From: Squalus acanthias
Taxonomy: Eukaryota
Length of the DNA: 64,000 bases
Reading direction: 5' to 3'
Assembly (NCBI GenBank): GCA_030390025.1
Contig: CM059432.1
Span: forward strand, 91,514,001 to 91,578,000
Position numbers and translations under genes: made by a program. This document shows positions 1,581-64,000 of this stretch, one piece after another. The notes below the pieces were generated by a model that ran no database searches, had not been told where the DNA came from, and saw only the letters and a list, made by a program, of their open reading frames with translations. Numbering within the stretch: the first letter of the stretch is position 1; the number at the start of each line of letters is the position of its first letter.

Positions 1581-2680
1581 TCCTTGCTGCTGTGTGCACT
1601 AAAACAGTTGAGTTTCTTCTTTGAATGTAACATGCTGTGCTCTGAGTTGGACCACTGCCTCAACTACACCTTTTAGAAAGGCCATCAGTAAGGTGATGTG
1701 AGCTGGAAGGCAAGCATGAGCAAATTTTTTGCATTTGCCTTTAATTAGTATTTAACAAGCCAGTACCATTAGCACTGGGTCTGTGCATTAACCTGGATTA
1801 CTCTCTGGAGAAATGTTAGGGACATAGACAAAAATTAGCAAACAATGTTTTACTGCTAATGCACAAAATTACATGAGTGCAGCCTTACCATCTGTATTAG
1901 GTCTAATGCACAAAAGAATTTAATTCCTTTGGAAAGCTGGAGACTGATCTATTAACAATAACCTGAAAAGGGCTAGACTTCAGAAGTGAAGAAGCTCACA
2001 GGGATAGTTATTTGGACAGCGTGTTTGTACAGTTGTAGTGGAAGCTCCATCTTTGATTTGGAGTGATTAATTGATCAAATTACCTGCAGCAATGCTTTAA
2101 TCTTGAGAAGCTAATGTACTTATAATGGAAGCTTTACCTTGGTTGTCAGAAGGAAGCAGTTAGGTTTTGTAAATGGGCGGGCTGCGAAATTCCCGTGCTT
2201 AGCGCTGGCTGTTATGGCTGGTTTGAAGAAAAAAAAAATGGTGCTCACAACGCTTCTGGTGACATCCGGTGTGGGCGGCGCTGGTCGTCACATTAGGAAG
2301 GGTGATAGAGCGGCCGTTGTCTTCGTGCACTGGAAGAATTTAAATGAGGCAGGTCGTGACCTCAATCAGCGTGTAACTCTGATTTGACGCACGACCTGCT
2401 ATTTTAGATGTCGCCGCTCCACTGTATGCCCCCTCCTAAGCACGCACAGCTGAATGTACGTTCAGCTGCACGACGGACCCCCCCACCAGCACTACTTACA
2501 GGGACACATGCAACTTTGAGGTAAGTTGCTTTTTGCCTTTGTGCTGGTTCCTATACAGTTTATTTGTGGCTTGGTGTGAGACATTAAGAAGTTGTTAATG
2601 TGTGCAGGGAGTGCTGCTGGACATTTGCAAGGTCTTGTCTCTTGAAGGAAGGCTTCTGAGAACACCACTTTCTTCCAGTC

Positions 2681-3757
2681 CTGGGGGCTCTAGTTGCAGT
2701 CCCCCTTGGGCTGCAGCATGACATGGCGATGGAGCAGAGGCAGCAAAGAAGACAAGCTGCTCGCAAAGTGAGGAGGAGGAGGAGGAGGAGGAGGGTTCTC
2801 CGCAGGAGGCCGTACCCACCTAGGGTTTTTAGGGAGTACTTCTACCTGCGCCTAAGCCAGGAGAAGTGTGTTCGTCAGCTCCGCTTCATCAAAGAGGTGG
2901 TCACGGAACACTGCCACCTCCTGCAACCAGGCTTGGAGCCCCCGAGCAGGGTGAGGACGGTGCTGCCAGTAGCCCTCAAGGTGACCGTGGCCCTCAATTT
3001 CTTTACCAACGGATCCTTACAGGCTGGAACATCTCGCAGTTTGCCGTCTATCGCTGCATCTGGGAGGTCACGGGCCCTGTATGCTAGGAGAAGGGACTTC
3101 ATTGTCAAGAGAAGCAGGAGGAGCGTGCACATGGCTTTGCCAGGATATTGGCCTTCCTCATGGTGCAGGACGCCATCGACTGCACACGTGGCTTTGCGGG
3201 CTCCACATCTCAATGGTGAGATGTACCACAACTGCAATGGCTACCACTCACTTAATGTACAGTGGGTGTGCGACCACGCCCAGCACGTCATGCAGATGAA
3301 TGCCCGCTATCTTGGCAGCAGAGGTGATGCCTTCATCCTGTGCCAGGAATATTCCAGCCACCACGTCAAGTCCGAGGATGGCTGCTCGGCGACAAGGGCT
3401 ATTCGCTCCACCTCTGTCTGATGACTCCCCTCCACAACCCCACCACTGGTGGCCAGCAATCATTCAATGAGAGCCATGCTGCCACGACGAACGTCATCGA
3501 GCAGACCATCGGCGTGCTAAAGCTTTGGTTCCACTGCCGTGCTCAGGAGAGCTCACCAGTACTCGCCGGAGCGGATGTCCCATTTCGTGGTGGTCTGCTC
3601 CATCCTGCACAACTTGGCCATCATGAGGACGCAGCCCTTGCCACCACTGGTTCCACCACCCCCTCAGGAGGAGGAAGAGGAACAGAGGAGACGGCCTGCC
3701 AATCCACATTCAGGACGGGCTTTCCATGAGCACATCATCAGACTCCACTTCCCCTGA
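2681..3757 (+). pseudogene. Harbinger (HARBI1-like) DDE transposase, frameshifted
   Basis: KVTVALNFF, AIDC, GYHSLNVQWVCD, GWLLGDKGY, NESHAATTNVIEQTIG and CSILHN spread over several frames. Confidence 0.9.
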
Positions 3758-16856: not shown

Positions 16857-19845
16857 TTTATTTTATTCATTCATGGGATGTGGGTGTCACTGGCAAGGCC
16901 AGTATTTATTGCCCATCCCCAATTGCCCTTGAGAAGGTCATGGTGAGCTGGCTTCTGGAACCGCTACAGTCTGTGAGGTAAGGGCTGTTAGGGAGGGAGT
17001 ACCAGGATTTTGATCCAGTGACAATCAAGGAACGGCGATCTATTTCCAAGTCAGGATGGTGTGTGACTTGGAGGGGAACTTGGAGGTGATGGTGTTCCCA
17101 TGCCCCTGTTGCCCTTATCCTTCTAGGTGGTAGAAATCGCGGGTTTGGGAGGTGCTGTCGAAGAAGCCTTGACAAGTTGCTGCAGTGTATCTTGTAGATG
17201 GTACGTACTGCAGCCATAGTGCACCGGTGGTGGAGGGAGTGAATGTTTACGGTGGTGGATGGGCTGCTAATCAAGCGGGCTGCTTTGTCCTGGATGGTGT
17301 CGAGCTTGAGTGTTGTTGGAGCTGCACTCATCCAGGCAAGTGGAGAGTATTCCATCACACTTCTGACTTGTTCCTTGTAGATGATAGAAAGGCTTTGGGG
17401 AGTCAGGAGATGCATCACTTGCCGCAGAATACCCAGCCTCTGACATGCTCTTGTAGCCACAGTATTTATGTGGCTGGTCCAGTTATGTTTCTGGTCCATG
17501 GTGACCACCAGGATGCTGATGTTGGGGAATTTGGCGCTGGCAATGCCGTTGAATGTCAAGGGGAGGTGGCTAGCCTCTCTCTTTTTGTAGATGGATATTG
17601 CCTGGCACTTGTGTGGCACGAATGTTACTTGCCACTTATCAGCCCAAGCCTGAATGTTGTCCAGGTCTTGCTGCATGCAGGCATGAGTGCTTCATTATCT
17701 GAGGAGTTGCGAATGGAACTGAACACTGCAATCATCAGCGAACATCCCCACTTCCGACCTTATGATGGAGGGAAGGACATTGATGAAGCAGCTGAAGATG
17801 GTTGGGCTCTGGACACTGCCCTGAGGAACTCCTGCAGTGATATCCTGGGGCTGAGATGATTGGCCTCCAACAACCACAACCATCTTCCTTTGTGCTAGGT
17901 ATGACTCCAGCCAGTGGTGAGTTTTGTCCCTGATTCCCATTTAATTTTACCAGGAGTCCTTGATGCCACAATCGGTCAAATGCCTACCTTGATGTCAAGG
18001 GCAGTCACTCTCACCTCATCTCTATAATTCAGCTCTTTTGTCCATGTTTGGACCAAGGCTGTAATGAGGTCTGGAGCCAAGTGGTCCTGGCTGAACCCAA
18101 ATTGAGCATTGGTGAGCAGGTTATTGGTGAGTAAGTGCTGCTTATTGACGACACCTTCCATCACTTTGCTGATGATTGAGAGTAGCCTGATGGGGCGGTA
18201 ATTGGCCGGATTGGATTTGTCCTGCTTTTTGTGGATAGGTCACACCTGGGCAATTTTCCACTTTGTCGGGTAGATGCCAGTGTTGTAGCTGTACTGGAAC
18301 AGCTTGGCTAGAGGTGCGGCTAGTTCTGGAGCACATGTCTTCAGCACTACAGCCAGGATGTTGTCGGGGCCCATAGCCTTTGCTGGATCCAGTGCGCTGA
18401 ACCGTTTCTTAATATCACGTGGAGTGAATCGAATTGGCTGAAGACTGATGGTGGGGACCTCAGGAGGAGGCTGATATAGATCATCCACTCGGCACTTCTG
18501 GCTGAAGATGGTTCCAAACGCTTCAGCCTTGTCTTTTGCAGTCATGTGCTGGGCTCTGCCATTATTGAGGATGGGGATTTTTATGGAGCCTCCTCCTCCC
18601 AGTTAGTTGTTTAATTGTCCATCACTATTCATGACTGAATGTGGCAGGACTGCAGAGCTTTGGTCTGATCCATTGGTGGTGGGATCGTTAGCTCTGTCTA
18701 TAGCATGCTGCTTCTGCTGTTTAGCATGCATGTGGTCCTGTGTTGTAGCTTCACCAGATTGGCACCTCATTTTTAGGTATGCCTGGTGCTGCTCCTGACA
18801 TGCTCTTCTACACTCCTCATTGAACCAGGGTTGGTCCCCTGGCTTGATGGTAATGGTAGAGTGAGGGATATGCCGGGCCATGAGGTTACAGTTTGTGGTG
18901 GAATACAATTCTGCTGCTGCTGATGGCCCACAGCGCCTCATGGATGCCCAGTTTTGAGCTGCTAGATCTGTTCTGAATCTATCCCATTTAGCACGGTGGT
19001 AGTGCTACACAACACGATGGGGGAGTGTCCTCAGTGTGAAGACAGGACTTTGTCTCCACAAGGACTGTCCGGTGGCCACTCCTACCAATACTGTCATGGA
19101 CAGGTGCATCTGCGACAGGTAGATTGGTGAGGACGAGGTCAAGTAGGTGTTTCCCTCGTGTTGGTTCTCTAGCCATCTGCCGCAGGCCCAGTCTGGCACC
19201 TATATCCTTCAGGGCTCAGCCAACTCGGTCAGTAGTGGTGCTACCGAGCCACTCTGGGGATGGACATTGAATTCCCCCACCCAAAGTATGTCTGTGCCCT
19301 TGATACCCTCAGTGCTTCTTCCAAGTGGTGTTCAGCCTGGAGGAGTACTGATTCATCAGCTGAGGGAGGGCGGTAGGGGGTAATCAGTAGGCGGTTTCCT
19401 TGCCCATGTTTGACCTGATGCCATTGTTGAGGACTCCCAGGGCCAATCCTTCATGACTGTATACCTCTGGTGGGTCTGTCCTGCCGGTGGGACTGGACCT
19501 ACCCGGGGATGGTGATGGAGGAGTCTTGGACGTTGGCTGAAAGGTACAATTCTGTGAGTATGACTGTCAGGCTGTTGCTTGTCTAGTCTGTGGGACAGCT
19601 CTCTCCATTTTGGCACAAGTCCCCAGATGTTAGTGAGAATGACTTTGCAGGGCTGGGTGTGCCTTTGCCATGTCTGAATCCGGTGCCTAGGTTGATGCTG
19701 CGTGGTCCGTCCGGTTTTATTCTTATTGCTTTTCCAACAGTTTGATACAACTGAGTGGCTTACTAGGCCATTTCAGAAGGCAATTAAGAGTCAACCACAT
19801 TGCTATGGATCTGGTGTCAGATATGGGCCAGACCAGGTAAGGGTG
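16857..19845 (-). mobile_element. Second CR1-group LINE family: EN-RT ORF2 only, decayed, with a SINE-like 5' segment
   Basis: EN (LDLVLTN...SIGRSGH), RT (GVPQGSV, MFADD) and C-terminal (MEYSPLAW) motifs; tail AAGGGCAATTGGGGATGGGCAATAAAT...ATGAATGAATAAA. Confidence 0.88.
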
Positions 19846-20268
19846 GATACTTGAGAAGGTGGCGGTGAGCCACCTTCTTGAACCGCTGCAGTCCATGTGG
19901 TGAAGGTACTCCCACAGTGCCGTTGGGGAGGGAGTTTCAGGATTTTGACCCAGCGGCGATGAAGGATTGGCAATATACTTCCATGTCAGGATGGTGTGGG
20001 GAGAGAGCGGGAATATGGTATTGAGATAGAGGATCAGTCATGATCATATTGAATGGTGGAGCAGGCTCGAATGGCCTACTCCTGCTTCTATTTTTCTATG
20101 TTTCTGTGTGTGTGTGACTTGAAGGGGAACTTGGAGGTGGTGGTGTTCCCATGCGCCTGCTGCCCTCTTCTTTCTAGGTGGAAGAGGTCGCGGGTTTGGG
20201 AGATGCTGCCGAAGAAGGTTTTGCGAGTTGCTGCAGTGCATCTTGTAGATAGTACACACTGCAGCCTG
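19846..20268 (-). mobile_element. 3' fragment of the second CR1-group family containing a + strand CR1 tail (about 20000-20105)
   Basis: Matches 16920-17215; internal GGCTCGAATGGCCTACTCCTGCTTCTATTTTTCTATG. Confidence 0.8.
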
Positions 20269-20269
20269 G

Positions 20270-22287
20270 ATTAACTGGATGAGTAGAAATTTCTTCCAAT
20301 TAAATATCGGGAAGACCAAAGCCATTGTCTTCGATTCACGCCACAGACTCCATTCCCTTTCCACTGATTCAGTCTCTCTCCCTGGCAACTGTCTAAGGCT
20401 GATCAAATTTTGATAAGGTCCCACATGGCAGACTGGTCACGAAAGTGAAAGCCCATGGGATCCAGGGCAAAGTGTCAAGTTGGATCCAAAATTGGCTGAG
20501 GCAGGAAGCAAAGGGTAATGGTCGACGGGTGTTTTTGTGACTGGAAGGCTGTTTCCAGTGGGGTTCCGCAGGGCTCAGTACTAGGTCCCTTGCTTTTTGT
20601 GGTATATATCAGTGATTTAGACTTGAATGTAGGGGGTATGATTAAGAAGTTTGCAGATGATACTAAAATCAGCTGTGTGGTTGATCATGAAGAAGAAAGC
20701 TGTAGACTGCAGGAAGATATCAATGAACTGGTGAGGTGGGCAGAACAGTGGCAAATGGAATTCAATCTGGAGAAGTATGAGGTAATGCGTTTGGGGAGGG
20801 CTAACAAGGCAAGGGAATACACTATAAATGGTAGGACACTGAGAAGCGTAGAGGAACAAAGGGACCTTGGAGTGCAGGTCCACAGATCCCTGAAGGTAGT
20901 AGGCCAAGTAGATAAGGTGGTTAAGAAGGCAAATGGAATACTTGCCTTTATTACCGAGGCATAGAATACAAGAGCAGGGAGGTTATGCTTGAACTGTATA
21001 AAACACTAGTTAGGCCACAGCTAGAATGCTACCTACAGTTCTGGTCACCACATGATTGCACTAGAGAGGGTACAGAGGGGATTTATGACGATGTTGCCTG
21101 GACGAGAATTTTAGCTACGAGGAAAGATTGGATAGGCTGGGTTTGTTTTCTTTGGAATATAGGAGGCTGAGGGGAGACTTTATTGAGGTGTGTAAAATTA
21201 TGAGGGGCCTAGATAGAGTGGATAGGCAGAACCCTTAGCAGAGGGGTCAACAACCAGGGGGGCATAGATTTAAAGTAATTGGTCGGAGGTTTAGAGGGGA
21301 TTTGAGGGGAAATTTCTTCACCCACAGGGTGGTGGGGGTCTGGAACTCACTGCCTGAAAGGGTGGTAGAGGCAGAACCCCTCATCACATTTAAAAAGTGC
21401 TTGGATGTGCACTTGAAGTGCCGTAACCTACATGGCTACGGACCAAGAGTTGGAAAGTGGGATTAGGCTGGATAGCTCCTTGTCAGCCAGCGTGGACATG
21501 ATGGGCTGAAATGGCCGCCTTCCGTGCTGTAAATTTCTATGATTCTATGAAGTCTGTTCGCAACCTTGGTGTCATATTTGATCACGAATTGAGCTTCCCA
21601 CCTCATATCCGTTATATCACTAAGACTGCCCATTTCCACCTTTGGAATATCGCCTGTCTCCGCCCTTACCTCAACTTATCTGCTGCTGAAACCCTCATCC
21701 ATGCCTTTATCACCTCTAGACTTGACTATTCCAATGCACTCCTGGCTGGCCTCCCTAGTTCTACCCTCTATAAACTTGAGGTCATCCAAAATTCTGCCAC
21801 CCGTGTGCTAACTTGTACCAAGTCCCGTTCACCCATCTCCCCTGTGCTCGCTGACCTACATTGACTTCCAGTTAAGCAACACCTCGATTTTAAAATTCAA
21901 ATCCTTGTTTTCAAATCCCTCCATGGCCTTGCCCCTCCTTATCTCTGTAATCTCCTCCAGCCCTATAATTCCCCTAGACCTCTGCGCTCCACCTATTCAG
22001 GACTCTTGAACATGCCCGATTTTAATTGCTCCATCATTTGCATTCGTGCCTTCAGCTGCCTGGGTTCTAAGCTCTGGAATTCCCTCCCTAAATCGCTCCG
22101 CCTCTCCACTTCTCTTTCCTCCTTTTAAGACTCTCTTTTAAAACCTACCTCTTCGATCAAGCTTTTGGTCAGCTGCCCTAACATTTCCTTATATGGCTCG
22201 ATGTCATTTTTTTTGATAACACTCCTGTGAAGCGCCTTGGGACGTATTATTATGTTAAAGGCACTATATAAATATAAATTGTTGTTA
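20270..22287 (+). mobile_element. L2 3' fragment split by a CR1 insertion
   Basis: SVRNLGVIFD, LIHAFITSRLDYSNALL; L2 sequence is contiguous across 20405-21549; TTGTTG tail. Confidence 0.88.
20405..21549 (+). mobile_element. 5'-truncated CR1 LINE
   Basis: SGVPQGSVLGP, KFADDTK; tail (TTCTATGA)n. Confidence 0.9.
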
Positions 22288-22372
22288 TAAATTCCACAGC
22301 TGCCATGGTGGGATTGAATTCATGTCCCTGGATTCGTAGTCCAGGAACATAACCACTATGCTACCGTTCCCA
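22288..22372 (-). mobile_element. tRNA-derived SINE head fragment
   Basis: Reverse complement GGGAACGGTAGCATAGTGGTTATG matches 63847 onward. Confidence 0.7.
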
Positions 22373-22431: not shown

Positions 22432-23600
22432 GAGTGGTTTTTAATTTGTTCTCTGGATGTGGATGATGCTGGCAAGGATATATTTATTACCCATCCTTAG
22501 TTTCCCTGATTGATTGACTTGCTAAATCACTTCAGCAGGCATTAAGGCCCCGATATTTACTGGGCGGGATTTCCAAGTAGCGGGGAGGAGTTTTGGTTGG
22601 GATCAACGTTCCCGCGAAGGCCGCGCAGCGGTCTGGAGGTCCTGTGTAGGCCACTCAACAGTTTTTAAACGGGGAAAAACTGCATATGTGCGAAAATTTG
22701 AATGGGCTGTGCAGCCAGCTCAAAGGGTCCGCACAGGGGAAAAAAAAAAGAGGGAACATTGGTTGGGATCCCCGAACGCTGTGGAGTTTGAACTCCACAG
22801 TGTGCTTTTTGTTTTAGGAGGTTCCCTGCCCAGAAGCCAGCCTGATTGACAGGCTTTGCTCCTGTCGGGCGGGAACGCTCCAGAAGAGGCCGCAGCCCAG
22901 GAGCAGGTCGCTTTCCTGCTCCTCAGGGTAGAGATCATGAGGGGGGTGGGTACAGCATGGTTTGGTGGGTCGGGGTGATCGCGGGAGAGGGGTTGTAGAG
23001 ATGTCAGGGGCTCGGCAATCGCGGGGTGGGGGGTGCTCGGTGAACGCCAGTGGGTCCGATCGCGGGGAAGGAAGCAGGTTAGCTTGGTGGACCGGGGAGA
23101 AGCACTCCTGCTCCTCCTGGCCCACAAGCAGTACTGGAAAGGCACTTTCCTCTTCCACGCAGCAGTCCTCGTCTCCCTTTATCTGCCGAGTTTCCCAAGT
23201 GCAGGGAAACCCATCCGGCCAGAGTTAAACCTGGAAGAGAGCTAAAATCTGAGGCACAAAGCCTCATTAAAATATTTAAATGAGCCACCCATCTCCTGGG
23301 AGCAGGCTGGTTACCCGTCCCGCCTCTGTTAAAATCAGAAGTGGGTGGGTTCGAGGCGGGTGGATTCAGGTTTGAGATTTTAAAAATGTTAATATCCCAC
23401 CCGACCCAAACCCACCCATTTTTGGGAGTCAAAATTGCCCCCCCCCCCCAGAGTCAACTATGTAGTCTTGTCCTGGAGTCACATTGGCCAGACCAAGTAG
23501 GGGCGGCAGGTTATCTTTCCTGAAGAACATTAGTGAACCAGTTGGGTTTTTATGACAATCCAGTAGCTTTCATGGTCATTGTTTTCTGGTGCTTATCCAC
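22432..23600 (-). mobile_element. SINE body plus LINE-type tail, split by the MITE at 22546-23449
   Basis: 23530-23575 matches 63960-64000; 23450-23520 matches 19788-19845; 22440-22510 matches the LINE tail at 16857-16935. Confidence 0.75.
22546..23449. mobile_element. Harbinger-type MITE, G-rich family
   Basis: TAA|GGCCCCGATATTT ... AAAATTGCCCCC; homologous to 61356-62404. Confidence 0.85.
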
Positions 23601-25171: not shown

Positions 25172-25565
25172 AAAAGACTTGCATTTATATAGCACCTTTC
25201 ATGACCTCAGGACATCCCAAAGCACTTTACAGCCAATGAAGTACTTTTTGAAGTTGTAATGTAGGAAACACAGAAGCCAATTTGTGCTCCCACAAGGACC
25301 AATATGATGATGACCAGATAATCTGTTTTTGTGATGTTGATTAATTGATGAGTGCCATGGGATCTTTTACATCCACCTGTGCGAGCAGACAGGGCCTCGG
25401 TTTGATGTCTCATCCGAAAGACGGCACCTCAGACAGTGCAGCACTCCCTCAGTACTGCACTGGAGTGTCAGCCTAGATTTTTGTGCTCAAGTCTCTGGAA
25501 TGGGACTTGAACCCACAACCTTCTGACTCAGGCGAGAGTGCTACCAATTGAGTCACGGCTGACAC
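25172..25565 (-). mobile_element. Deu-domain SINE (SacSINE1/AmnSINE1-like) with tRNA head and L2-type tail
   Basis: GAGGTGCCGTCTTTCGGATGAGAC...CAGGTGGATGTAAAAGATCCCATGGCAC core; B box GGTTCAAGTCCC; tail GGTGCTATATAAATGCAAGTCTTT. Confidence 0.85.
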
Positions 25566-31417: not shown

Positions 31418-32502
31418 ATGGGGGCTCTAGTTGCAGTCCCCCTCGCGGTGCAGCATGACAGGGAGATGGAGCAGAGGCAGCGAAGACGAGCTGCTCGTAG
31501 AGGGAGGGGGAGGAGGGCTCTTGGCAGGAGGCCTTACCCACCTAGGGTCTCCAGGGAGCACTTCATTTACCTGCACCTAAGCCAGGAGCAGTGAGTTCGC
31601 CAGCTCCGCTTCACTAAGGACGTGGTCACAGAACTGCTATCTCTTGCAACCAGACCTGCAGTCTCCGAGCAGGGCGATGACTGCACTGCCAGTGTCCAAG
31701 GCCCTGAATTTTTTCGCCAGGGTATCCTTCCAGGCTGGAATAGGTAACATAGCAAACATCTCGCAGTTCGCCATCCATCGCTGCATCCAGGAGGTCACAG
31801 AGGCTCTGTACTCTCGGAGAATAGACTTCTTCATCTTCTCTCTAAACAGAGAGAAGCAGGAGGAGCACGCAGGTGGCTTTGTCATGATGTTGGGTTTCTA
31901 CATGGTGCAGGGCCCATCGACTGCCTACATGTGGCTTTGCGGGCACCACATATCAGTGCTGAGATGTTCCGTAAAAGACTACCACTCACTTAATGTGCAG
32001 TTGGTGTGCGACCACGCCCAGTACATCATGATAGTGAATGCCCACTATCCTGGCAGCAGTCATGATGCCGTCATCCTGCGCCAGTCCGGTGTGCCATCAA
32101 TCTTCCAGCCACCACGTCAAACCCGAGGGTGGCTGCTCGGAGACCAGGACTATCCGCTCTACACCTGGCTGATGACGCCCCTCCGCAACCCCACCACTCG
32201 TGGCCAGCAATCATATAATGAGAGCCATGCTGCCACAAGGGACCTCATGGAGCAGACCATCGGGGCACTCGAGCAACAGTTCCGCTGCCTTGAGCGCTCA
32301 GGAGAAGCCCTCCAGTACTCATTGGACCAGGTCTCCCAATTCGTGGTGGTCTGCTGCATCCTTCACAAGTTGCCCGTCATCAGGGCGCAGCTCTTGCCAC
32401 CACGGATTCCGCGACCACCTCAGGAGGCGGAGGAGGCAGCCTGCAAAACCCCGTTCCAGATGGGCTGTCCGTGAGAGCCTCATCAGACTCCAGTTCCCCT
32501 AA
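31418..32502 (+). pseudogene. Harbinger DDE transposase with stops and frameshifts
   Basis: YHSLNVQLVCD, YPGSSHDA, GWLLGDQDY, YNESHAATRDLMEQTIG, CCILH. Confidence 0.92.
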
Positions 32503-33269: not shown

Positions 33270-33666
33270 GAAAGAAAAAAGGAAGAATTGGATTTATATC
33301 GCGCCTTTCAAGACCACTGGACGTCCCAAAGCGCTTTACAGCCAATAAAGTACTTTTTGAAATGTAATCACTGTTGTAATGTGGGAAATGCAGCAGCCAA
33401 TTTGCACACAGCGAGCTCCCATAAACCAATGTGATAATGACCAGATAATCTGTTTTAATTATGTTGATCGAGGGATAAATGTTGACCAGGACCCCGGGGA
33501 TACCTCCCCTGCTCTTCAAAATAGTGTCATGGGATCTTTTACATCCACCTGAGAGAGCAGACGGGGCCTCGGTTTAACGTCTCATCCGAAAGACGGCACC
33601 TCCGACAGTGCAGCACTCCCTCAGCACTGCACTGGAGTGTCAGCCTAGATTTATGTGCTCAAGTCC
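33270..33666 (-). mobile_element. Deu-domain SINE (SacSINE1-like), head truncated
   Basis: Homologous to 25172-25565; inserted in Myb exon 3 of element B. Confidence 0.85.
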
Positions 33667-33907
33667 TTGTAATAGAGTTGCCCATCACTTCCATCCTGGA
33701 AATCATGGGCTCCAAGCTCTGCGCAAAGCCCTATGCAATGTTGGAGCTGGACTCCTCGTTGCTCCTTGACAGTGACAAGAGGCTCTCTGGCAGGCCTGCC
33801 ATTGCACCAAGCATTTCTGTATGCGTGCCTATCACCCTTCTTCTGGAGGCCGCCCCATTGAAATCCTCATCTGAGTTCTCTGCAGCAGAGCATGTGTGCA
33901 ACACTTT

Positions 33908-46797: not shown

Positions 46798-47971
46798 TTA
46801 CTGGAACTGCAGTCTGATGAGACAGTCACGGACCACCCTTCTGGAAGGCCGATTGAGTGGCTGCCTCCTCCCTCGCTCCTGTTCCTCCTCCTCCTCATCT
46901 TCCTCGTCCTCCTCCTCCTCCTCTCCCTCTTCCTCCTCCTGAGGTGGTCCCGCAATCCCTGCTGGCAAGGGCTGAGCCCTCATGATGGCCTGATTGTGGG
47001 CATACAGCACACCACGACGAAATGGGACACCCGCTCCACCGAGCACTGGAGGGCTCCTCCTGAGCGGTCAAGGCAGCGGAACCATTACTTGAGCACCCTG
47101 ATGGTTTGCTCGATGATGTTCCTGGTGGCAGCATGGCTCTCATTATATGAGTGCTGGGCACGAGTGTTGGGGTTGCGGAGAGGAGTCATGAGCCAGGTGG
47201 AGAGCGGATAGCCCTTGTCTCCGACCAGCCAGCCGCAAGCTTGATGTGATGGCTGGAAGAGGGCTGGCACACCAGTCAGATGCAGGATGAACGCATTGTG
47301 GCTGCTGCCAGGAGAGCGGGCATTCACCTTGAGGATTCGCTGTCTGTGGTCGCACACCAACTGCACATTAAGTGAGTGGTAGCCTTTGCGGTTACGTAAG
47401 ATCTCAGGATTGTTATGTGATGCCTGCAAAGCTACATGGGTGCAGTCAATGGCGCCATGCACCATGGGGAATCCCACTATCCTGGCAAAGCCACATGCAC
47501 GCTCATCCTGCTTCTCTCTGGTGATGGGGAAGGAAATATAATCCCTTCTCCTACTGTAGAGACCCTCTGTGACCTGTCGGATGTAGCGATGGACGACGAA
47601 CTGCGAGATGTTACCTATGTCTCCTGTTGCAGACTGGAAGGTTCCGCTGGTGAAGAAATTAAGGGCAACGGTGACCTTGACTGCCGCTGAGAGAGCCATG
47701 GTTGCCCTGATCTGAGGCTGGAGGTCTGGTTGCAGGAGGTAGCAGAGTTCTGTGACCACCTCCTTGCTGAAGTGGAGCCTTCTAATACACTGCTCCTCGC
47801 TTAATTGGAGGTAGAAGTGCTGTCGGAATACGCTCGGAGGGACAGGCCTCCAGTTGAGAGCCCTGATGACCCTCCTCCTCCCTCTGGCCACATGTTCAAT
47901 CTTTCTCGCTGCCTCCGCTCTCTCCGCAGTAGATCCTGGAGGGCGAGGTCGACTGCCAGTACAGCCCCCAT
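46798..47971 (-). pseudogene. Harbinger DDE transposase, nearly intact
   Basis: 268-aa open core 47085-47891 with GAIDCTH, LVGDKGY and IIEQTI (D-D-E); N-terminal frameshift and premature stop. Confidence 0.93.
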
Positions 47972-49439
47972 TAATGTAAGGAAGTGCAGCACTTTGTTAT
48001 TTTGTGAGAATAAATGTAACTAATTGTTAGTAGCCACAACACTCCGGAGACTAACCAACCTTTAAATAACTGAATTAAACTGTTGCACAATGTCAAACTG
48101 ACAAAGAAGCAGTGAAACTGCACTAACATGACAGCTGCGACTCATTACTCATGAACCCTTTAAGTATCGCCCCTGGAGCCGGCTACTGACTGCTTCATGC
48201 CTCCTCTCCCTGCCGCTATTGGGGCAAGGCGCTAAGGCAGGGGGCGATACTCAATTTGGCAGATCGGCCGCCCAGTGAGCGTTGCACGCTCACTGACATC
48301 ACGATCTGCCTGGCGCTGCAGTCCCCGGCGCTAACTCGTAGCGGCGGCGCTACGGGGGGGGGGGGGGCGAATTTGGCGTGCGGCGCTGGATTCGCCACGC
48401 TGCGGCGCTACTACCTCAGCATCCCATTAGCGCCCCCACCAGGCGCTAACTGGAGGTGCTAACCAACCAAATTTCTCCCCCTAAGAGTGTGGAAAAATCC
48501 AATTGTGTTTTTTTAAAAAAAGAATTATTATGCAGTATTAGAAATTTTAATTAGCCATTAATGTTGACTAATGATGGAGACACATTGGTTAGCACATCTA
48601 TTGAAAATTGTCAGTCACCAGGTCTATCGCAACAGCAATCCCTGAGCCTGGGTTTAGTTACCCAATACTGTTATAACATTTTTAGTGGTCTTGTACAATG
48701 ATGCACAACATGTTTATCATCTGTGGCTGCCACAATAGGTAGCATGGCTTGGATATGAGAGGGAGACTAGGCTGCTTTTTTCAGTGACTTTTTGGAGATA
48801 AATACTGTAGAAGTGCCGGACTGCACCTAATAAATTTGACCTTATATCTTTATGACATTGGGAATGCTTTATTGGAGATGCGAGGATTCTTCAAATTGTC
48901 ATTCTGTGAGTCCTATCCAGAGCTAGGTTACATGAACAAGTTTCCATTCCATGGATGAAAAATATTTGCAATGTATATGCTACATTCAACCAAGTGTTCA
49001 AATAAATAAGCGGTGTTATCCAGGAGTGTTTACTGCCCCAGGAAATTGAAAGCTGGCTGGATGATTGAGGAGTCTTTCATTCAACTGGTATATCTTCAGT
49101 TTTATGCTACAATGCAATCACAGGTATGATGTAATGACTATTTAATTAGTGATATTATTTATATAAAAGTTTTCTGAGCATCTGTGATAGTTTATATAAA
49201 ATAAGACATCAACAAATCACTAATATTTAAAAAGGAAAAAGAAACCTAGTTATTTCCTGCTGAATGTTTGAAGGGATAAACTACCATCCCTACAAACAAT
49301 AAAATCTTATGTATGATGCCAGGCAATGCTCAGCATCTGACGTTAGATACTTTAACTGGTGTTGTCAAGTAAAATGTTTTTACTACTGGCACTAACATGA
49401 GGCCTAATCATTTGCTGCAAAAATGACAAAATAATGTAA

Positions 49440-49880
49440 CACATCCAGACAAAGCAGTCCATCCAGGGCAAAGTAGTCCGCTTGATCGGCACCCATCCAA
49501 CCAACTTAAGCATCTACGCTCTCCGCCACCAATTTACCATGGCTGCAGTGTGTACTATCCACAGGATGCACCCAGCAAGTCCAAGGCTTCTTCGGCAGCA
49601 CATCCCAAACTCACGACCTCCAGCACCTAGAAGGACAAAGGCAGCAGGTGCATGGGAACACCATCACTTCAAAGTCGCGCACCATCCTGACTTGAACATA
49701 TATCGCCGATCCTTCATCGTTGCTCGGTCAAAATCCTGGAACTCCCTAACTAACAGCACTGTGAGAGCACCTTTATCCCATGGACTGCAGCGGTTCAAAA
49801 AGAAGGCCCATCATCACCACCTCAAGGGCAATTAGGAATGGGCAATAAAATGCCAGCAATGCCCACATCCCAAGAATAAT
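49440..49880 (+). mobile_element. 3' fragment of the second CR1-group LINE family
   Basis: AAVCTIHRMH...SKSWNSL...HHHLKGN; tail AAGGGCAATTAGGAATGGGCAATAAA. Confidence 0.85.
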
Positions 49881-50060
49881 AAATAGAAATTGGTGGCGTG
49901 AAAGAGGATTTCTGATTTCATTTCTACCTTCTGATATAAAGCATGATGCAACATATTGATATTATAGATTTCACAATCAAGCAGTCCCAACGGAGAATAG
50001 TTTTTCCACAGTGCACATCTCTGCAAATAACAGAATCACCCCTGTAGTTTCAGCGTATGT

Positions 50061-52689: not shown

Positions 52690-54868
52690 ACATAGAATTT
52701 CACAGAATGCACAGTGCAGAAACAGGCTATTTGGCTCAACAGGTCTATGCTGGTGTTTTTGCTCCACACGAGCCTCCTCCTATTCTACTTCGTCTAACCT
52801 TACCAGCATATCCTTCTATTCCTTTCTCCCTCAAATGCTTATCTAGCTTCTCTTTAATGCACCTTCACTTTTTCTTTTATTTGTTTATGGGATCTGGGCG
52901 TCGCTGGCATGGCCAGCATTTATTGCCCATCCCTAATTGCCCTTGAGAAGGTGGTGGTGAGCCACCTTCTTGAACCGCTGCAGTCTGTGTGGTGAAGGTA
53001 CTCCCATAGTGTTATTAGTGAGGGAGTTCCATGATTCTGACTCAGTGACGATGAAGGAACGGCGATATACTTCCAAGTTAGGATGGTGTGTGACTTGGAG
53101 GGGAACTTGGAGGTGGTGGTGGGAGTGAATGTTTAAGGTGGTGGATGGGGTACCAATCAAGCGGGCTGCTTTTTCCTGAATGGTGTTGAGCTTCTTGAGT
53201 GTTGTTGGAGCTGCACTCATCCAGGCAAGTGGAGAGTATTCCATCACACTCCTCACTTGTGCCTTGTAGATGGTAGAAAGACTTTGGGGAGTCAGGAGGT
53301 GAGACTTGCTGCAGAATACCTAGCCTCTGACCTGCTCTTGTTGCCACAGTATTTATGTGACTGGTCCAGTTAAGTTTCTGGTCAATGGTGACCCCCAGGA
53401 TGTTGATGGTGGGGGATTTGGCGATGGTATTGCCGTTGAAAGTCAAGGGGCGGTGGTTAGACTCTCGCTTGTTGGAGATAGTCATTGCCTGGCACTTGTG
53501 GGGCGCGAATGTTACCTGCCACATATCAGCCCAAGCCTGAATGTCGTCCAGGTCTTGTTGCATGCGGGCATGGACTGCTTCATTATCTGAGGAGTTTGCC
53601 TCAACTGTTCCTGTGGTAGCGAGTTCCACATTCTAACCACTCTCTGGCTAAAGAAGTTTCTCCTGAATTCCCTATTGGATTTATTAGTGACTAATACATT
53701 TGTGACCACTAGTTTTGGACTCCCCCACAAGTGGAAACATTTTCTTCACATCTACCCTATCAAACTCTTTCATTATCTTAAAGACCTCTATCAGTTCAGC
53801 CCTTAGCCTTCTCTTTTCTCGAGAAAAGAGCCCCAGCCTGTTCAGCCTTTCCTGATAAGTATATCCTCTCAGTTCTGCTATCATTCTTGTGAATCTTTTT
53901 TGCACCGTCACCAATTCTTCTACATCCTTTTTATAATATGGAGACCAGAACTGTCCACAATACTCCAAGTGTGGTCTAACCATGGTTCGATACAAGTTTA
54001 ACATTACTTCTCTGCTTTTTGGGTCTATCCCTCTAGAAATGAACTCCAGTGGTTGGTTTTCTTTTTTTTAATGACTTTTTTAACCTGCATCACTACTTTT
54101 ATGATTGGAGTATCTGTACCCCTAGATCCCTTTTCTCCTCTATCCCATTCAGACTCTTATTACCAAGCAATATGTGGCCTCCTTATTCTTCATACCAAAA
54201 TGTACCACCTCACATTTATTTATATTGAAATTCATTTACCAACATACCCATGCTGCAAGCTTATTAATGTCTTCCTATATTTTGTCATATTCTTCCTTTG
54301 TGTTAACTATAGCTCCCAATTTGATGTTGACTGCAAATTTTGAAATTGTACTTCCGATTCTTGAGTCCAAATCATTAATGTAAATTGTAAGTCCAAATCA
54401 TTAATGTAAATTGTGAACAGTGGTCCCAGTACTTATCCCTGTGGAACACCACTTCCCACCTTTTGCCTTTCTGAGTAGCTACCCGACCCACTATTCTCTG
54501 TTTTCTGTTTTGTAGCCAACTTACTAACCATTCTGCTACCTGTCCCCTGACTCCACGTGCTCTGACCTTAGTCATGAGTCTACTGTGCGGTACTTTATCA
54601 AAGGCCTTTTGGAAATCCAAATATATTACATCAACTACATTACCCTTGTCTACTCTTTCTGTTACTTCTTCAAATAATTCAACAAGGTTGGTCAAGCAAG
54701 ACCTTCCCTTTTGAAATCCATGCTGACTACTCTATTTTATTTTTGGTTTCTATATGTTTTTCTATTGCATTTTTGAGCAAGGATTCCATTTTCTTTTCTA
54801 CCACAGACATTAAGCTAACTGGTCTATAGTTCACGGAACTTGTTCTATCTTCCTTTTTAAATATAGGA
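52690..54868 (-). mobile_element. Degenerate CR1 RT and 3' end, with a second-family LINE fragment inserted at about 52868-53595
   Basis: [25 protein letters not shown]; the insert has QQDLDDIQAWADMWQVTF. Confidence 0.85.
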
Positions 54869-55398: not shown

Positions 55399-58336
55399 TC
55401 ACGTCCTCTTCCCTGCCTGCTCCCCATAACCCTTAATTCCCTTATCAGCTAGGAAACTGTCTATCTCCGTTTTAAATTTATTTAATGTCGCAGCTTCCAC
55501 AGCTCTCTGAGGTAGCAAATTCCATAGATTTACTACCCTCTGAGTGAAGAAGTTTCTCCTCATCTCAGTTTTGAAACGGCAGCCCCTTATTCTAAGACTA
55601 TGCCCCCTAGTTCTAGTCTCACCCATCAGTGGAAACATCCTCCCCGCTTCCACCCGATCAAGCCCCCTCACAATCTTATATGTTTCGATAAGATCGCCTC
55701 TCATTCTTCTGAATTCCAATGAGTAGAGGCCCAACCTACTCAACCTTTCCTCATAAGTCAACCCCCTCATCTCCGGAATCAACCGAGTGAACCTTCTCTG
55801 AACTGCCTCGAGAGCAAGTATATCTTTTCTTAAATATGGAAACCAAAACTGTACGCAGTATTCCAGGTGTGGCCTCACCAGTATCTTGTATAACTGAAGC
55901 AAGACTTCCCTGCTTTTATACTCCATCCCCCTTGCAATAAAAGCCAAGATTCCATTGGCCTTCCTGATCACCTGCTGTACCTGCATACTAGCCTTCTGTG
56001 TTTCATGCACCAGGACCCCCAGATCCATTTGTACTGTAGCACTTTGCAGTTTCTTTCCATTTAGATAATAACTTGCTCTTTGATTTTTTCTGCCAAAGTG
56101 CATAACCTTACACTTTCCAACATTATATTCCATCTGCCAAATTTCCGCCCACTCACTTAGCCTGTCTATGTCCTTTTGCAGGTTTTTTATGTCCTCCTCA
56201 CTCACTGCTTTTCCTCCCATCTTTGTATCATCAGCAAACTTGGATACGTTGCACTTGGTCCCCTCCTCCAAATCGTTAATATAGATTGTAAAGAGTTGGG
56301 GTCCCAGCACTGACCCTTGCGGAACACCACTAGTTATTGATTGCCAACCCGAGAATGAACCATTTATCCCAACTCTCTGTTTTCTGTTAGATAGCCAATC
56401 TTCCACCCATGCCAGTATATTACCCCCAATCCCGTGATTTTTTACCTTGTGCAGTAATCTTTTGTGTGGCACTTTATCAAATGCCTTTTGGAAGTCCAAA
56501 TACACCACATCCACTGGTTCCCCTTTATCCACCCTGTTTGTTACGTCCTCAAAGAATTCGAGCAAATTTGTCAAGCATGATTTCCCCTTCATAAAACCAT
56601 GCTGACTCTGTCCGATTAAATTATGCTTATCCAAATGTCCTGTTACTGCTTCCTTAATAATGGACTCCAACATTTTACCAACCACAGCTGTTAGGCTAAC
56701 TGGTCTATAGTTTCCAGCCTTTTGTCTACCTCCCTTTTTAAATAAGGGCGTTACATTAGCAGTTTTCCAATCTGCTGGGACCTTTCCCGAATCCAGGGAG
56801 TTTTGGAAAATTACCACCAATGCATCCGCAATCCCTACCGCTGCTTCTCTCAAGACCCTAGAATGTAAGCCATCAGGTCCAGGGGATTTATTCGCTTTAA
56901 GTCCCATTATCTTACCGAGTACCATCTCCTTAGAGATTTTAATCGTGTTTAGCTCCTCCCCCCCCATAGCCCCCCGTTTGTCCAGTGTTGGGATATTTTT
57001 AGTATCCTCTACTGTAAAGACTGATACAAAATATTTGTTCAGCGTATTTGCCATCTCCGTGTTCCCCACTACTAATTTCCCGGTCTCGTCCTCTAAGGGA
57101 CCAACATTCACTTTAGCCACCCTTTTTCTTTTTATATAACTGTAGAAACTCTTGCTATCTGTTTTTATATTTTTTGCTAGTTTACTTTCATAATCCATCT
57201 TCCCCTTCTTAATTAATCTTTTAGTTATTCTTTGCTGGCTTTTAAATGCTTCCCAATCTTCTATCCTCCCACTAGATTTGGCTACTTTATCTGCCCTTGT
57301 TTTCAGTCGGATACTATCCTTTATTACTTTACTTAGCCACGGATGGCTGTCTTTTCTTTTACGCCCCTTTTTCCTCAGTGGAATATATTTTTCTTGAAAG
57401 TTGTGAAATACCTCCTTGAATGTACACCACTGCTCCTGTACCGTCTTACACCTTAATCTATTTTCCCAGTCCACTTTAGTCAACTCTGCTCTCATACCTT
57501 CATAGTCTCCTTTATTTAAGCTTAGTACGCTGGTTTGAGATCCAACTCTCTCACCCTCCAACTGAATTTGGAATTCAACCATGTTATGGTCACTCATTCC
57601 AAGGGGATTCTTTACTAGGACATTTTTTATTAATCCTGTCTCATTACACAGGACCAGATCTAAGATTGCCTGCCCCCGGTTGGTTCAGTAACATACTGCT
57701 CAAGGAACCCATCCCTAATGCACTCTATGAACTCTTCCTCAAGGCTGCCCTGCCCAATTTGATTTGTCCAGTCAATATGAAAGTTAAAATCTCCCATGAT
57801 TATAGTTGTTCCCTTATTACAAGCCCCAACTATTTCCTGATTTATACTCCGACCAATAGGGTTACAACTGTTAGGAGGCCTATAGACTACGCCCACTAGT
57901 GACTTCTTCCCCTTATTATTCCTTATCTCCACCCAAACTGTTTCACTATCCTGATCCTTTGACCCAATATCATTTCTCACTATCACAGTGATTCCATCCT
58001 TTATTAACATAGCCACCCCACCTCCCTTTCCTTCCTAATAGTCAAATACCCCTGGATGTTTAGTTCCCAGTCATGGTCACCTCGCAGCCATGTTTCTGTA
58101 ATGGCCACCAGATCATACCCATGTGTAGTTATTTGTACCGTCAACTCGTCTATTTTGTTACGAATGCTGCGTGCATTCAGATAAAGAACTTTTAAACATG
58201 TTTTGTGACAATTTATTCCTGCTTTTACCCCCTTTATTACTTTACCTTTATCTTTATATATTCTGTCCCTTCCTGACACGCTCTGGTTTTTAATTTCCCC
58301 ACTGCTAATTTGTTCCATTGCCTTCTCCGCTGACAT
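55399..58336 (-). pseudogene. CR1 ORF2 (AP endonuclease and RT); two frameshifts in EN, last 732 aa open
   Basis: YLNARS, AITETW, YRPP, MGDFN, SDH; RT FADD. Confidence 0.93.
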
Positions 58337-58374
58337 TTTTATTCTTCGCTCTCTTGAAACCTCCCCCCCACTAA

Positions 58375-59331
58375 TTAGTTTAAAGCCCTCTCTACAGCCC
58401 TAGTTATTCGATTCGCCAGGATTCTAGTCCCAGCATTGGCCAAGTGAAGTCCGTCCCAATGGAACAGCTCTCTCCCGTCCCAGTACTGGTGCCAGTGTCC
58501 CAAGAAGCAAAACCCATTTCTCCCACACCAGTCTTTGAACCACGCATTTAACTCTCTGATTTTGTTTACCCTAGCCAAATTTGCTCGTGGCTCAGGTAGT
58601 AATCCAGAGATTATTACCCTTGTGGTTCTGCTTTTTAATTTGGCCCCTAGCTGCTCATACTCCCTCAGCAGAACCTCTTTCCTTGTCCTATCTATGTCGT
58701 TGGTACCAACATGGACCATGACAACTGGATCCTCCCCCTCCCACTCCAAGTTTCTCTCCAGCCCAGAGGAGATGTCCTTAACCCTGGCACCGGGCAAGCA
58801 ACACAACCTTCGGGACTCTCGTTCTCGGCTGCAAAGAACCCTATCTATCCCCCTTATGATACTATCCCCTACCACTACAACATTTCTTTTTACTCCCCCC
58901 ACTTGAATGGCCCCCCGTTCCACGGTGCTGTGGCCAGGTTGCTCATCCTCCCTGCAGTCCCTGCTCCCGTCCTCACAGGGAGTAAGAGCCTCGAACCTGT
59001 TGGACAAGAGCAAGGGCTGCGGCTCCTCCAACACTACCTCCTGGATCCCCGTACCTGCCTCACTCATAGTCACACCCTCCTGTCCCTGACCACGGACTAC
59101 ATCTGAATTAGTTAATCTAATTGGTGTGACTACTTCCTGGAACACAGAGTCCAGGTAACTCTCCCCCTCCCTGATGTGTCGCAGTGTTTGAAGCTCGGAC
59201 TCCAGCTCATCAACACGGAGCTGGAGTTCCTCGAGCAGCCAACACTTACTACAAATGTGATCACCGTGAGCATCAATGGTGTCCACCAGCTCCCACATAT
59301 TGCAGCAGTAACACATCACCTGCTCTCCCAT
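58375..59331 (-). CDS. CR1 ORF1, intact 318 aa: zinc finger, leucine zipper and SGNH esterase
   Basis: CYCCNMW...CSKC; LQLRVDELESEL; VVGDSII, HVGTND, DGLHL. Confidence 0.92.
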   Translation of the reverse strand: MGEQVMCYCCNMWELVDTIDAHGDHICSKCWLLEELQLRVDELESELQTLRHIREGESYLDSVFQEVVTPIRLTNSDVVRGQGQEGVTMSEAGTGIQEVVLEEPQPLLLSNRFEALTPCEDGSRDCREDEQPGHSTVERGAIQVGGVKRNVVVVGDSIIRGIDRVLCSRERESRRLCCLPGARVKDISSGLERNLEWEGEDPVVMVHVGTNDIDRTRKEVLLREYEQLGAKLKSRTTRVIISGLLPEPRANLARVNKIRELNAWFKDWCGRNGFCFLGHWHQYWDGRELFHWDGLHLANAGTRILANRITRAVERALN

Positions 59332-59560
59332 TCTATGTAATTAATTAAATTTATTAATATTTTTTAATACCCTCTGCCCCGCCTGATGAATATCACGCCT
59401 TAGAAACTATAAACCACAGAGTTTAAGTTTAAAAAGAGAGAAATACTCACCAACCAATTACTTACCTGCTTTCTGGTGACGTCACACCTCGATTATTTTT
59501 TACCTCCCTCCCTCCGAGTTCGGAGACTGGTCCCGCCTTACCTGGTCTCTGGAGCCTTTT

Positions 59561-63792: not shown

Positions 63793-63846
63793 ATAGTGAT
63801 CTGGATTTTCCTCCCTTTGGCAGGTTTGTGGCAACTCTAATAATGT

Positions 63847-64000
63847 GGGTACGGTAGCATAGTGGTTATGTTACTGGACTAGTAATCCAGGGATACGAGT
63901 TCAAATCCCATCACGGTATCTGTGGAATTAAAAAAATTCAGTTAATTAAATAAATAGTATGAAACCACCGGATTGTTGTAAAAACCCATCTGGTTCACTA
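63847..64000 (+). mobile_element. tRNA-headed SINE (or LINE 5' end) running off the window
   Basis: A box TAGCATAGTGG, B box GAGTTCAAATCCC; 63960-64000 matches the reverse complement of 23530-23575. Confidence 0.8.

Follow-up and report, generated by a model that had tools for sequence, protein, structure and literature searches.

Introduction

LINEs are coding elements transcribed by RNA polymerase II (Pol II), while SINEs are non-coding and rely on RNA polymerase III (Pol III) for transcription; this is the usual division between the two. Several described systems pair a SINE with a LINE that shares part of its sequence. In the bipartite systems of the RTE and Vingi groups, such as Bov-tA with BovB and SINE2-1_ACar, the SINE has both its 5′ region and its tail in common with the LINE, and the tRNA-derived head sits on the SINE only (Kojima 2018, PMC5786205). 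[quoted passage not shown] Among sharks, SacSINE1 and the DeuSINEs are tRNA-headed SINEs with a LINE-derived tail, the partner being L2-2_CM (PMC5499810, PMC4824008); SacSINE1 has only its tail in common with L2-2_CM (PMC5499810), and its head and body differ from those reported below. In mammals, tRNA/L1 chimeras are described as one-off insertions, mostly half-length and antisense (PMC13174262). Recruitment of a SINE head by a mammalian L1 was considered as a further precedent and dropped, since it was not found in the available part of PMC5381506.

Closest among described families are the elasmobranch Zenon elements, classed in the CR1 group (Stuart et al. 2026, PMC13343379), which were reported from five sharks and rays as >84% alike, lacking ORF1 and ending in a poly-A tail, and were not formally deposited in a repeat repository. 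Zenon has also been described as a tail donor to bivalve SINEs (PMC11481361). The words tRNA, promoter, Deu and Pol III are absent from the main text of PMC13343379, where SINE occurs once, in the title of a reference. That paper makes no comment on a SINE head, a derived short element or a deficit of T runs, as reported below, although the Zenon sequences themselves are already public. Among the papers listed from the largely open full-text literature, no title or abstract opening concerned a Zenon with a tRNA head or a coding LINE driven by Pol III, and no text combined Zenon, shark, tRNA and SINE.

Here we characterize a decayed member of this family in a 64,000-nt stretch of Squalus acanthias DNA (the window), together with a short element that shares both of its ends.

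Results

Layout of the LINE copy

The LINE copy at 16870–19845 (minus strand) is a 5′-truncated, dead elasmobranch Zenon of a family about 3.3 kb long. It has one endonuclease/reverse-transcriptase ORF and no ORF1. Its leader stops within the body at 19845, so that the upstream body and the head are missing, as the initial annotation had recognized for the head. The copy and its relatives in the window are laid out as follows.

16870–16935, minus strand: 3′ tail, ending A-rich and holding a stem-loop (42/53 identity to the short element at 22455–22507)
16906–~19715, minus strand: single ORF (APE endonuclease and reverse transcriptase), decayed (tblastn with L001 and other full-length relatives)
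19653–19749, minus strand: A-rich linker, variable in length, followed by basic N-terminal sequence that is in frame with the endonuclease (contig loose-end consensus at 19740/19741; alignment to the N-terminus of P0028)
19750–19845, minus strand: 3′ part of the SINE-like body, which forms the 5′ leader of the LINE (matches to 23450–23520 and 22505–22545)
19850–20266, minus strand: distinct 3′ piece of this LINE family, ending just before the tail (75–87% matches to 16928–17215)
49459–49883, plus strand: older 5′-truncated copy of the same LINE family (74% to 16862–17297)
52871–53596, minus strand: 5′-truncated copy of the same LINE family (82–89% to 16857–17708)

The ORF is interrupted by stops, frameshifts and deletions. 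Its first endonuclease catalytic motif lies at ~19652–19620, which agrees with an earlier placement of the endonuclease start near 19650. The endonuclease start aligns to the N-termini of two of the seven full-length relatives (P0028 and P0030), with scores above all 500 shuffles, and its alignment to the N-termini of the other five is not significant. The rest of ORF2 aligns lengthwise to the intact relative L001 (E 1e-131), and the full-length relatives of the LINE carry Exo_endo_phos and RVT_1 domains. Only ~100 nt separate the body from the catalytic motif, and the longest stop-free frame in 19600–20420 spans 124 codons, the endonuclease start included. There is therefore no space for an ORF1, and the reading of 19740–19845 as something other than ORF1 is borne out. 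All four ATGs in 19600–19845 are out of frame with the endonuclease.

The LINE copy also lacks the esterase-type ORF1 of canonical vertebrate CR1 elements. The same window contains a CR1 element whose ORF1, at 58375–59340 (minus strand), is of the esterase type (Lipase_GDSL_2, E 5e-11). This canonical CR1 (55399–59340, minus strand), which is long and retains a 761-codon open reverse-transcriptase stretch, served as a control. The reverse transcriptase of the Zenon copy is 27% identical to that of the window CR1 and falls on a separate branch in a quick tree of 40 rows, which holds relatives only and no named reverse-transcriptase references. It groups with single-ORF proteins among the best 150 of 6,842 matches (E up to 0.001).

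The tail stem-loop is the same in two LINE copies (z −1.2 and −2.5); it could not be recovered from the short element, which is decayed (z 0.2). The 3′ end is A-rich yet short and interrupted in three window copies; the 3′ ends of the published elements are not visible in the rows compared. No target-site duplication was found flanking the LINE copy or the old, interrupted short element.

A short element with a tRNA-derived head shares both ends of the LINE

The leader and the tail of the LINE recur in a short element, which is split by an unrelated repeat, and the upstream part of that element recurs behind a tRNA-derived head at the end of the window.

22290–22372, minus strand: fragment of a second tRNA-derived head, including an A box and a B box (86% over 84 nt to 63846–63929)
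22440–22545, minus strand: 3′ half of the short element, the body end fused directly to the LINE tail (sequence matches; the same joined form in contig loose ends)
22546–23455, no strand assigned: unrelated interspersed repeat of ~910 bp inserted in the short element (68–75% matches at 9.1, 26.8, 29.6 and 62.1 kb)
23450–23575, minus strand: 5′ half of the body of the short element (matches to the leader and to 63959–64000)
63846–64000, plus strand: tRNA-derived head and body start, cut by the window end (Rfam tRNA, boxes, body match)

The leader is identical to the short element at 44/57 positions in 23450–23520 and at 28/36 positions in 22505–22545, and the direct joint of the short element to the LINE tail rests on the 42/53 match listed above; none of 500 shuffles reaches any of these three scores. 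Upstream, 23531–23573 matches 63959–64000 at 86% over 43 nt (E 4e-8). All of these relations had been proposed in the initial annotation, as had a tRNA head with A and B boxes near 63847. The boxes lie at 63855–63865 (A) and 63897–63909 (B), and 63854–63912 matches the Rfam tRNA model with 26.4 bits (E 0.0011), below the gathering score of 29; ARAGORN called no tRNA within the 64-kb window.

The short element thus has three features of a SINE2/tRNA element: a tRNA-derived head with A and B boxes, a tail in common with its partner LINE, and multiple copies. Its link from head to body is seen at 63846–64000, while the copy at 22–23 kb has no head directly attached. The head-plus-body at 63846–64000 could belong to either the long or the short form. 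The isolated head at 22290–22372 lies ~70 nt downstream of the tail of the short element, in the same orientation.

The body was also compared with known SINE domains. Its identification as the Deu domain of SacSINE1/AmnSINE1 was rejected, because the supplement of PMC5786205 prints a different head for SacSINE1 and a different Deu sequence. A Deu-type copy within the window, at ~33480–33700 (minus strand), aligns to none of the body, head, leader or tail (P 0.15–0.99). This copy is SacSINE1-like by its core motif, and a second core motif lies at 25364 (minus strand). The body matches none of the sequences printed in the main texts searched, and the available parts of the supplements of PMC4824008 and PMC5804259 gave no matches. 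Against Rfam, the leader and the leader of L001 showed no ribozyme and no other credible family.

The ~910-bp repeat is GC-rich, begins with a G run and is possibly a non-autonomous DNA transposon. Elsewhere in the window, DDE_Tnp_4 (Harbinger-type) transposase frames lie at 31581–32474 (plus strand, E 1e-26) and 47085–47996 (minus strand, E 2e-23), and a frame at 2660–3421 looks similar to these by appearance only.

Published elasmobranch Zenons carry head, body and ORF

Sequence matches place the LINE family in the elasmobranch Zenon of PMC13343379. Two body motifs from the window match the supplement of that paper exactly, 6 and 5 times, and only in elasmobranch Zenon rows. As compared by eye over the first 400 letters, the leader and the endonuclease start of the window copy agree with these rows. 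With no ORF1, one endonuclease/reverse-transcriptase ORF and an A-rich tail, the window copy does not differ in kind from the published family.

By the same comparison by eye, all seven elasmobranch consensuses open with an A box and a B box, followed by the body, the A-rich linker and then the leader on the endonuclease side. Both boxes are kept in 7/7 consensuses from five species, and the endonuclease side follows within ~400 nt after the head and body. The 5′ ends therefore fit the predicted autonomous partner, in which a tRNA head is followed by the body, ORF2 and the tail. The other three vertebrate Zenon rows (two hagfish, one coelacanth) have neither tRNA head nor body.

The seven elasmobranch consensuses are 2,886–3,314 nt long. 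In five families the longest genomic insertion comes within ~2% of the consensus length (consensus 3,288, 3,293, 3,314, 3,283 and 2,886 nt; longest insertion 3,299, 3,299, 3,322, 3,220 and 2,870 nt), and in the other two it exceeds the consensus. If the supplement column means what its name says, real copies span head to tail. It is in these published consensuses, built from automatically extended seeds (PMC13343379), that head and ORF are linked. The initial annotation had reasoned that its proposal would fall if the longest copies carried an ORF1 and no head; the long consensuses are headed and have no ORF1. Intact ORFs are very rare in the legible cells of the supplement (0/2313, 1/1419, 3/612, 1/294, 0/59 and 0/396; one cell is unreadable).

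Headless relatives

L001 (440–3720 of an AT-rich metagenome contig) is an apparently intact single-ORF LINE with an open frame of 1004 codons, a leader of ~250 nt and a (TAA)n end. It aligns along the LINE ORF at 30–48% identity and carries Exo_endo_phos and RVT_1 in one ORF, with no ORF1. It is probably a Zenon element of invertebrate type. Its leader gave no tRNA call, no Rfam tRNA match and no match to the body. A 17-nt match between the L001 5′ region and the tRNA head (P 0.01, the best of four comparisons) has no support from the tRNA model and was dismissed as chance. Since L001 and the hagfish and coelacanth elements lack head and body, these are specific to the elasmobranch lineage among the elements examined. 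The coelacanth and hagfish Zenons and L001 are likewise single-ORF elements without ORF1; they differ from the elasmobranch family in the missing tRNA head and body and in the presence of TTTT runs. The initial annotation had set the missing ORF1 against canonical CR1-group LINEs, which have one. The absence holds, but it is no oddity, as Zenon elements universally lack ORF1 (PMC13343379) and the headless L001 lacks it too.

A protein-based scan of metagenomes found seven related loci, one of them full length; the same scan of viral and prokaryote contigs found none. A 2A-like motif is absent from the closest full-length relatives, and one of 18 long proteins, the distant P0001, has one.

The body-to-endonuclease junction recurs in four public runs

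Assembled contigs of four public runs (four organism labels and studies) were aligned to 19250–19900 at 80% likeness, which yielded 44,997, 13,721, 25,369 and 2,414 aligned contigs. One of the runs, X19, may be RNA, and its contigs were not counted as evidence of expression. At least four contigs cross the junction and extend 31 letters or more to either side of it, one from run X19 and three from X3, among the 32 pieces listed (with 87,734 more); they differ from the window at 18–48 positions. At least three joints, among 15 listed (with 706 more), link endonuclease and body across a linker of variable length, and together they cover all four runs. The link between body and endonuclease is thus not unique to this locus; uniqueness would have spoken against the initial proposal. 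In three of the four runs contig depth over the body exceeds that over the endonuclease, depth not being a measure of copy number. Patterns for the junction and body had no matches in viral and metagenome contigs.

Loose ends of the contigs reveal several forms (24 rows listed, with 2,440 more, so that all figures are lower bounds). At 19740/19741 the body runs into an A-rich linker in at least 333 contigs of run X1 and at least 264 and 204 of X8; because agreement is low, some of these may be poly-A-ended short forms. At 19747/19749 the body runs into the LINE tail, which is the short form (at least 313 contigs in X1 and at least 35 in X19); such body-to-tail ends were seen in two of the four runs among the 24 rows listed. 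At 19745 the body is joined to a longer LINE 3′ piece (at least 22 contigs, X19), and at 19842 it continues into more body upstream (at least 38 contigs, X19). The body end is also joined further up the LINE 3′ region in all four runs (at least 3, 3, 4 and 2 contigs), and at least three body-to-3′-end breakpoints occur among the contigs listed. Since the head lies outside the aligned stretch 19250–19900, the contigs carry no head-to-ORF link.

The 5′ end of the LINE copy adjoins, head-to-tail, the tail-less fragment at 19850–20266, which is itself interrupted by a CR1-type 3′ piece at 19993–20110. Counterparts of this fragment normally continue into the tail in the four runs (at least 746, 257, 661 and 84 contigs), so the joint at 19850 looks local, and it did not recur among the loose ends listed. 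For this arrangement of the LINE copy behind a piece of its own family, nested insertion is one possibility and a dimer that underwent deletion is another.

The sense strand is poor in T runs

The initial annotation had called for a check on T4+ Pol III terminators. The sense strand of 16870–19845 contains no TTTT in 2976 nt, compared with 4.1 expected under base shuffles (P 0.014) and 2.1 under dinucleotide shuffles (P 0.10, not significant). When codons were permuted synonymously over 2,301 in-frame nt, TTT occurred 5 times against 10.7 expected (P 0.008) and TTTT 0 times against 2.0 (P 0.089, not significant), and runs of A, C and G were normal. Weak terminator-like words occurred 4 times against 11.7 expected (P 0.005), with no deficit in the controls. 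Pooled with four shorter fragments of the family, which overlap and are therefore non-independent, TTTT is absent from 4,450 nt (P 0.005 and 0.027).

In 8,385 nt of CR1 there are 27 TTTT runs, and L001 and two window CR1s show no T deficit (9, 6 and 11 TTTT runs). By eye, TTTT is absent from the first 400 letters of all seven headed consensuses and present in all three headless Zenons. Measured against dinucleotide shuffles, CCC, GGG and TTT are depleted alike (z −3.3, −2.9 and −2.6), and the family of the Zenon copy favours C-ending codons generally. The deficit was set against a number of nulls, in essence for a single decayed copy, and is suggestive, but no proof, of Pol III transcription.

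Discussion

We propose that an ancestral headless Zenon gained the tRNA-derived head, and probably the body too, in the shark-and-ray lineage, when reverse transcription switched template to a SINE RNA. Both boxes, A and B, would then have become the internal promoter of the element, from which Pol III would read through the entire ORF, purged of T-run terminators, and stop in flanking DNA. ORF2p would bind the 3′ stem-loop and insert copies by target-primed reverse transcription, a step well established for LINEs. Ready-made SINEs would arise repeatedly, and with different breakpoints, through internal deletions that spare the promoter and the tail. To this whole explanation, from the head gained by template switching to the SINEs formed by deletion, we assign a probability of roughly 0.55. 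We are more tentative about Zenon as an autonomous coding element that is transcribed end to end by Pol III, translated independently of cap and AUG, and a standing source of SINEs by deletion, a combined claim that we place a little short of even odds.

The order of events may have been different. The body could be the native 5′ UTR of Zenon, of which a deletion product gained a tRNA head and became the SINE, the LINE later regaining the head from this SINE of its own. This order, which we lean against, follows the Bov-tA route documented for RTE and Vingi (PMC5786205) and is compatible with either polymerase. It fits a body that matches no Deu-type copy and no sequence in the main texts searched, but the 5′ ends of the coelacanth and hagfish elements (by eye) and of L001 have no body-like sequence, though these relatives are distant, and the A-rich linker that follows the body resembles what would remain of a captured SINE's tail. 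The initial annotation had offered deletion of the LINE into a SINE and capture of a SINE by the LINE as alternatives; the evidence suggests both, one after the other.

Pol II may instead produce the full-length transcript, starting in the head region or reading through from host promoters, with the tRNA-like head as a passenger or a processing signal that sets the 5′ end and the low T content otherwise caused. LINEs are regarded as Pol II transcripts (PMC10886601, PMC5786205), and Pol III is considered too weakly processive for autonomous elements (Kojima 2024, PMC10886601). A capped RNA would also solve the translation of the ORF, and both the general preference for C-ending codons and the low CCC and GGG counts under one null fit a cause unrelated to Pol III. 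However, once protein and codon counts are fixed, depletion is confined to T runs and is absent from the three controls; the A and B boxes are kept in all seven consensuses from five species (by eye); and the headless relative L001 has normal T runs. We therefore consider transcription by Pol II unlikely.

Pol III transcription of the headed Zenon, as predicted here from sequence, raises a difficulty of its own. The RNA would lack a cap, as Pol III transcripts do, and there is no in-frame ATG ahead of the endonuclease motif, which leaves translation unexplained. In the one published row that shows both the linker ATG and the motif, the ATG is out of frame (by eye). Because the phase between body and ORF varies between published rows (by eye), the body is unlikely to be coding. 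A division of labour, in which Pol III makes the template RNA and ORF2p comes in trans from Pol II read-through of a few copies, would account for both the purge of T runs and the missing in-frame start, and the element would behave as a giant SINE with a coding passenger. The reported rarity of intact ORFs agrees with such an arrangement but may reflect age only, and upkeep of the ORF across sharks and rays, where consensuses are >84% alike, normally needs cis preference; we judge this arrangement quite improbable.

That the elements are adjacent by chance at this locus, and that the published consensuses are chimeras of an abundant SINE and a LINE, is almost certainly wrong: the LINE copy does adjoin another element at 19850, and consensus building can fuse repeats, but independent contigs with 18–48 differences cross the junction, split contigs link its two sides in four organisms, seven consensuses from five species agree on it, and the 19850 joint, by contrast, does not recur among the loose ends listed.

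A headed, T-run-poor, 3.3-kb coding family across sharks and rays makes the division of polymerases between LINEs and SINEs directly testable, and Pol III read-through of the Zenon ORF would pose the problem of translating an RNA that has no cap. In shark genomes, headed Zenons will be split or mislabelled by repeat annotation. Even if Pol II is used, the derivation of a SINE body from the 5′ end of a LINE extends from RTE and Vingi to the CR1 group, where the coding LINE itself is headed, and the reverse flow, from SINE to LINE, is indicated as well.
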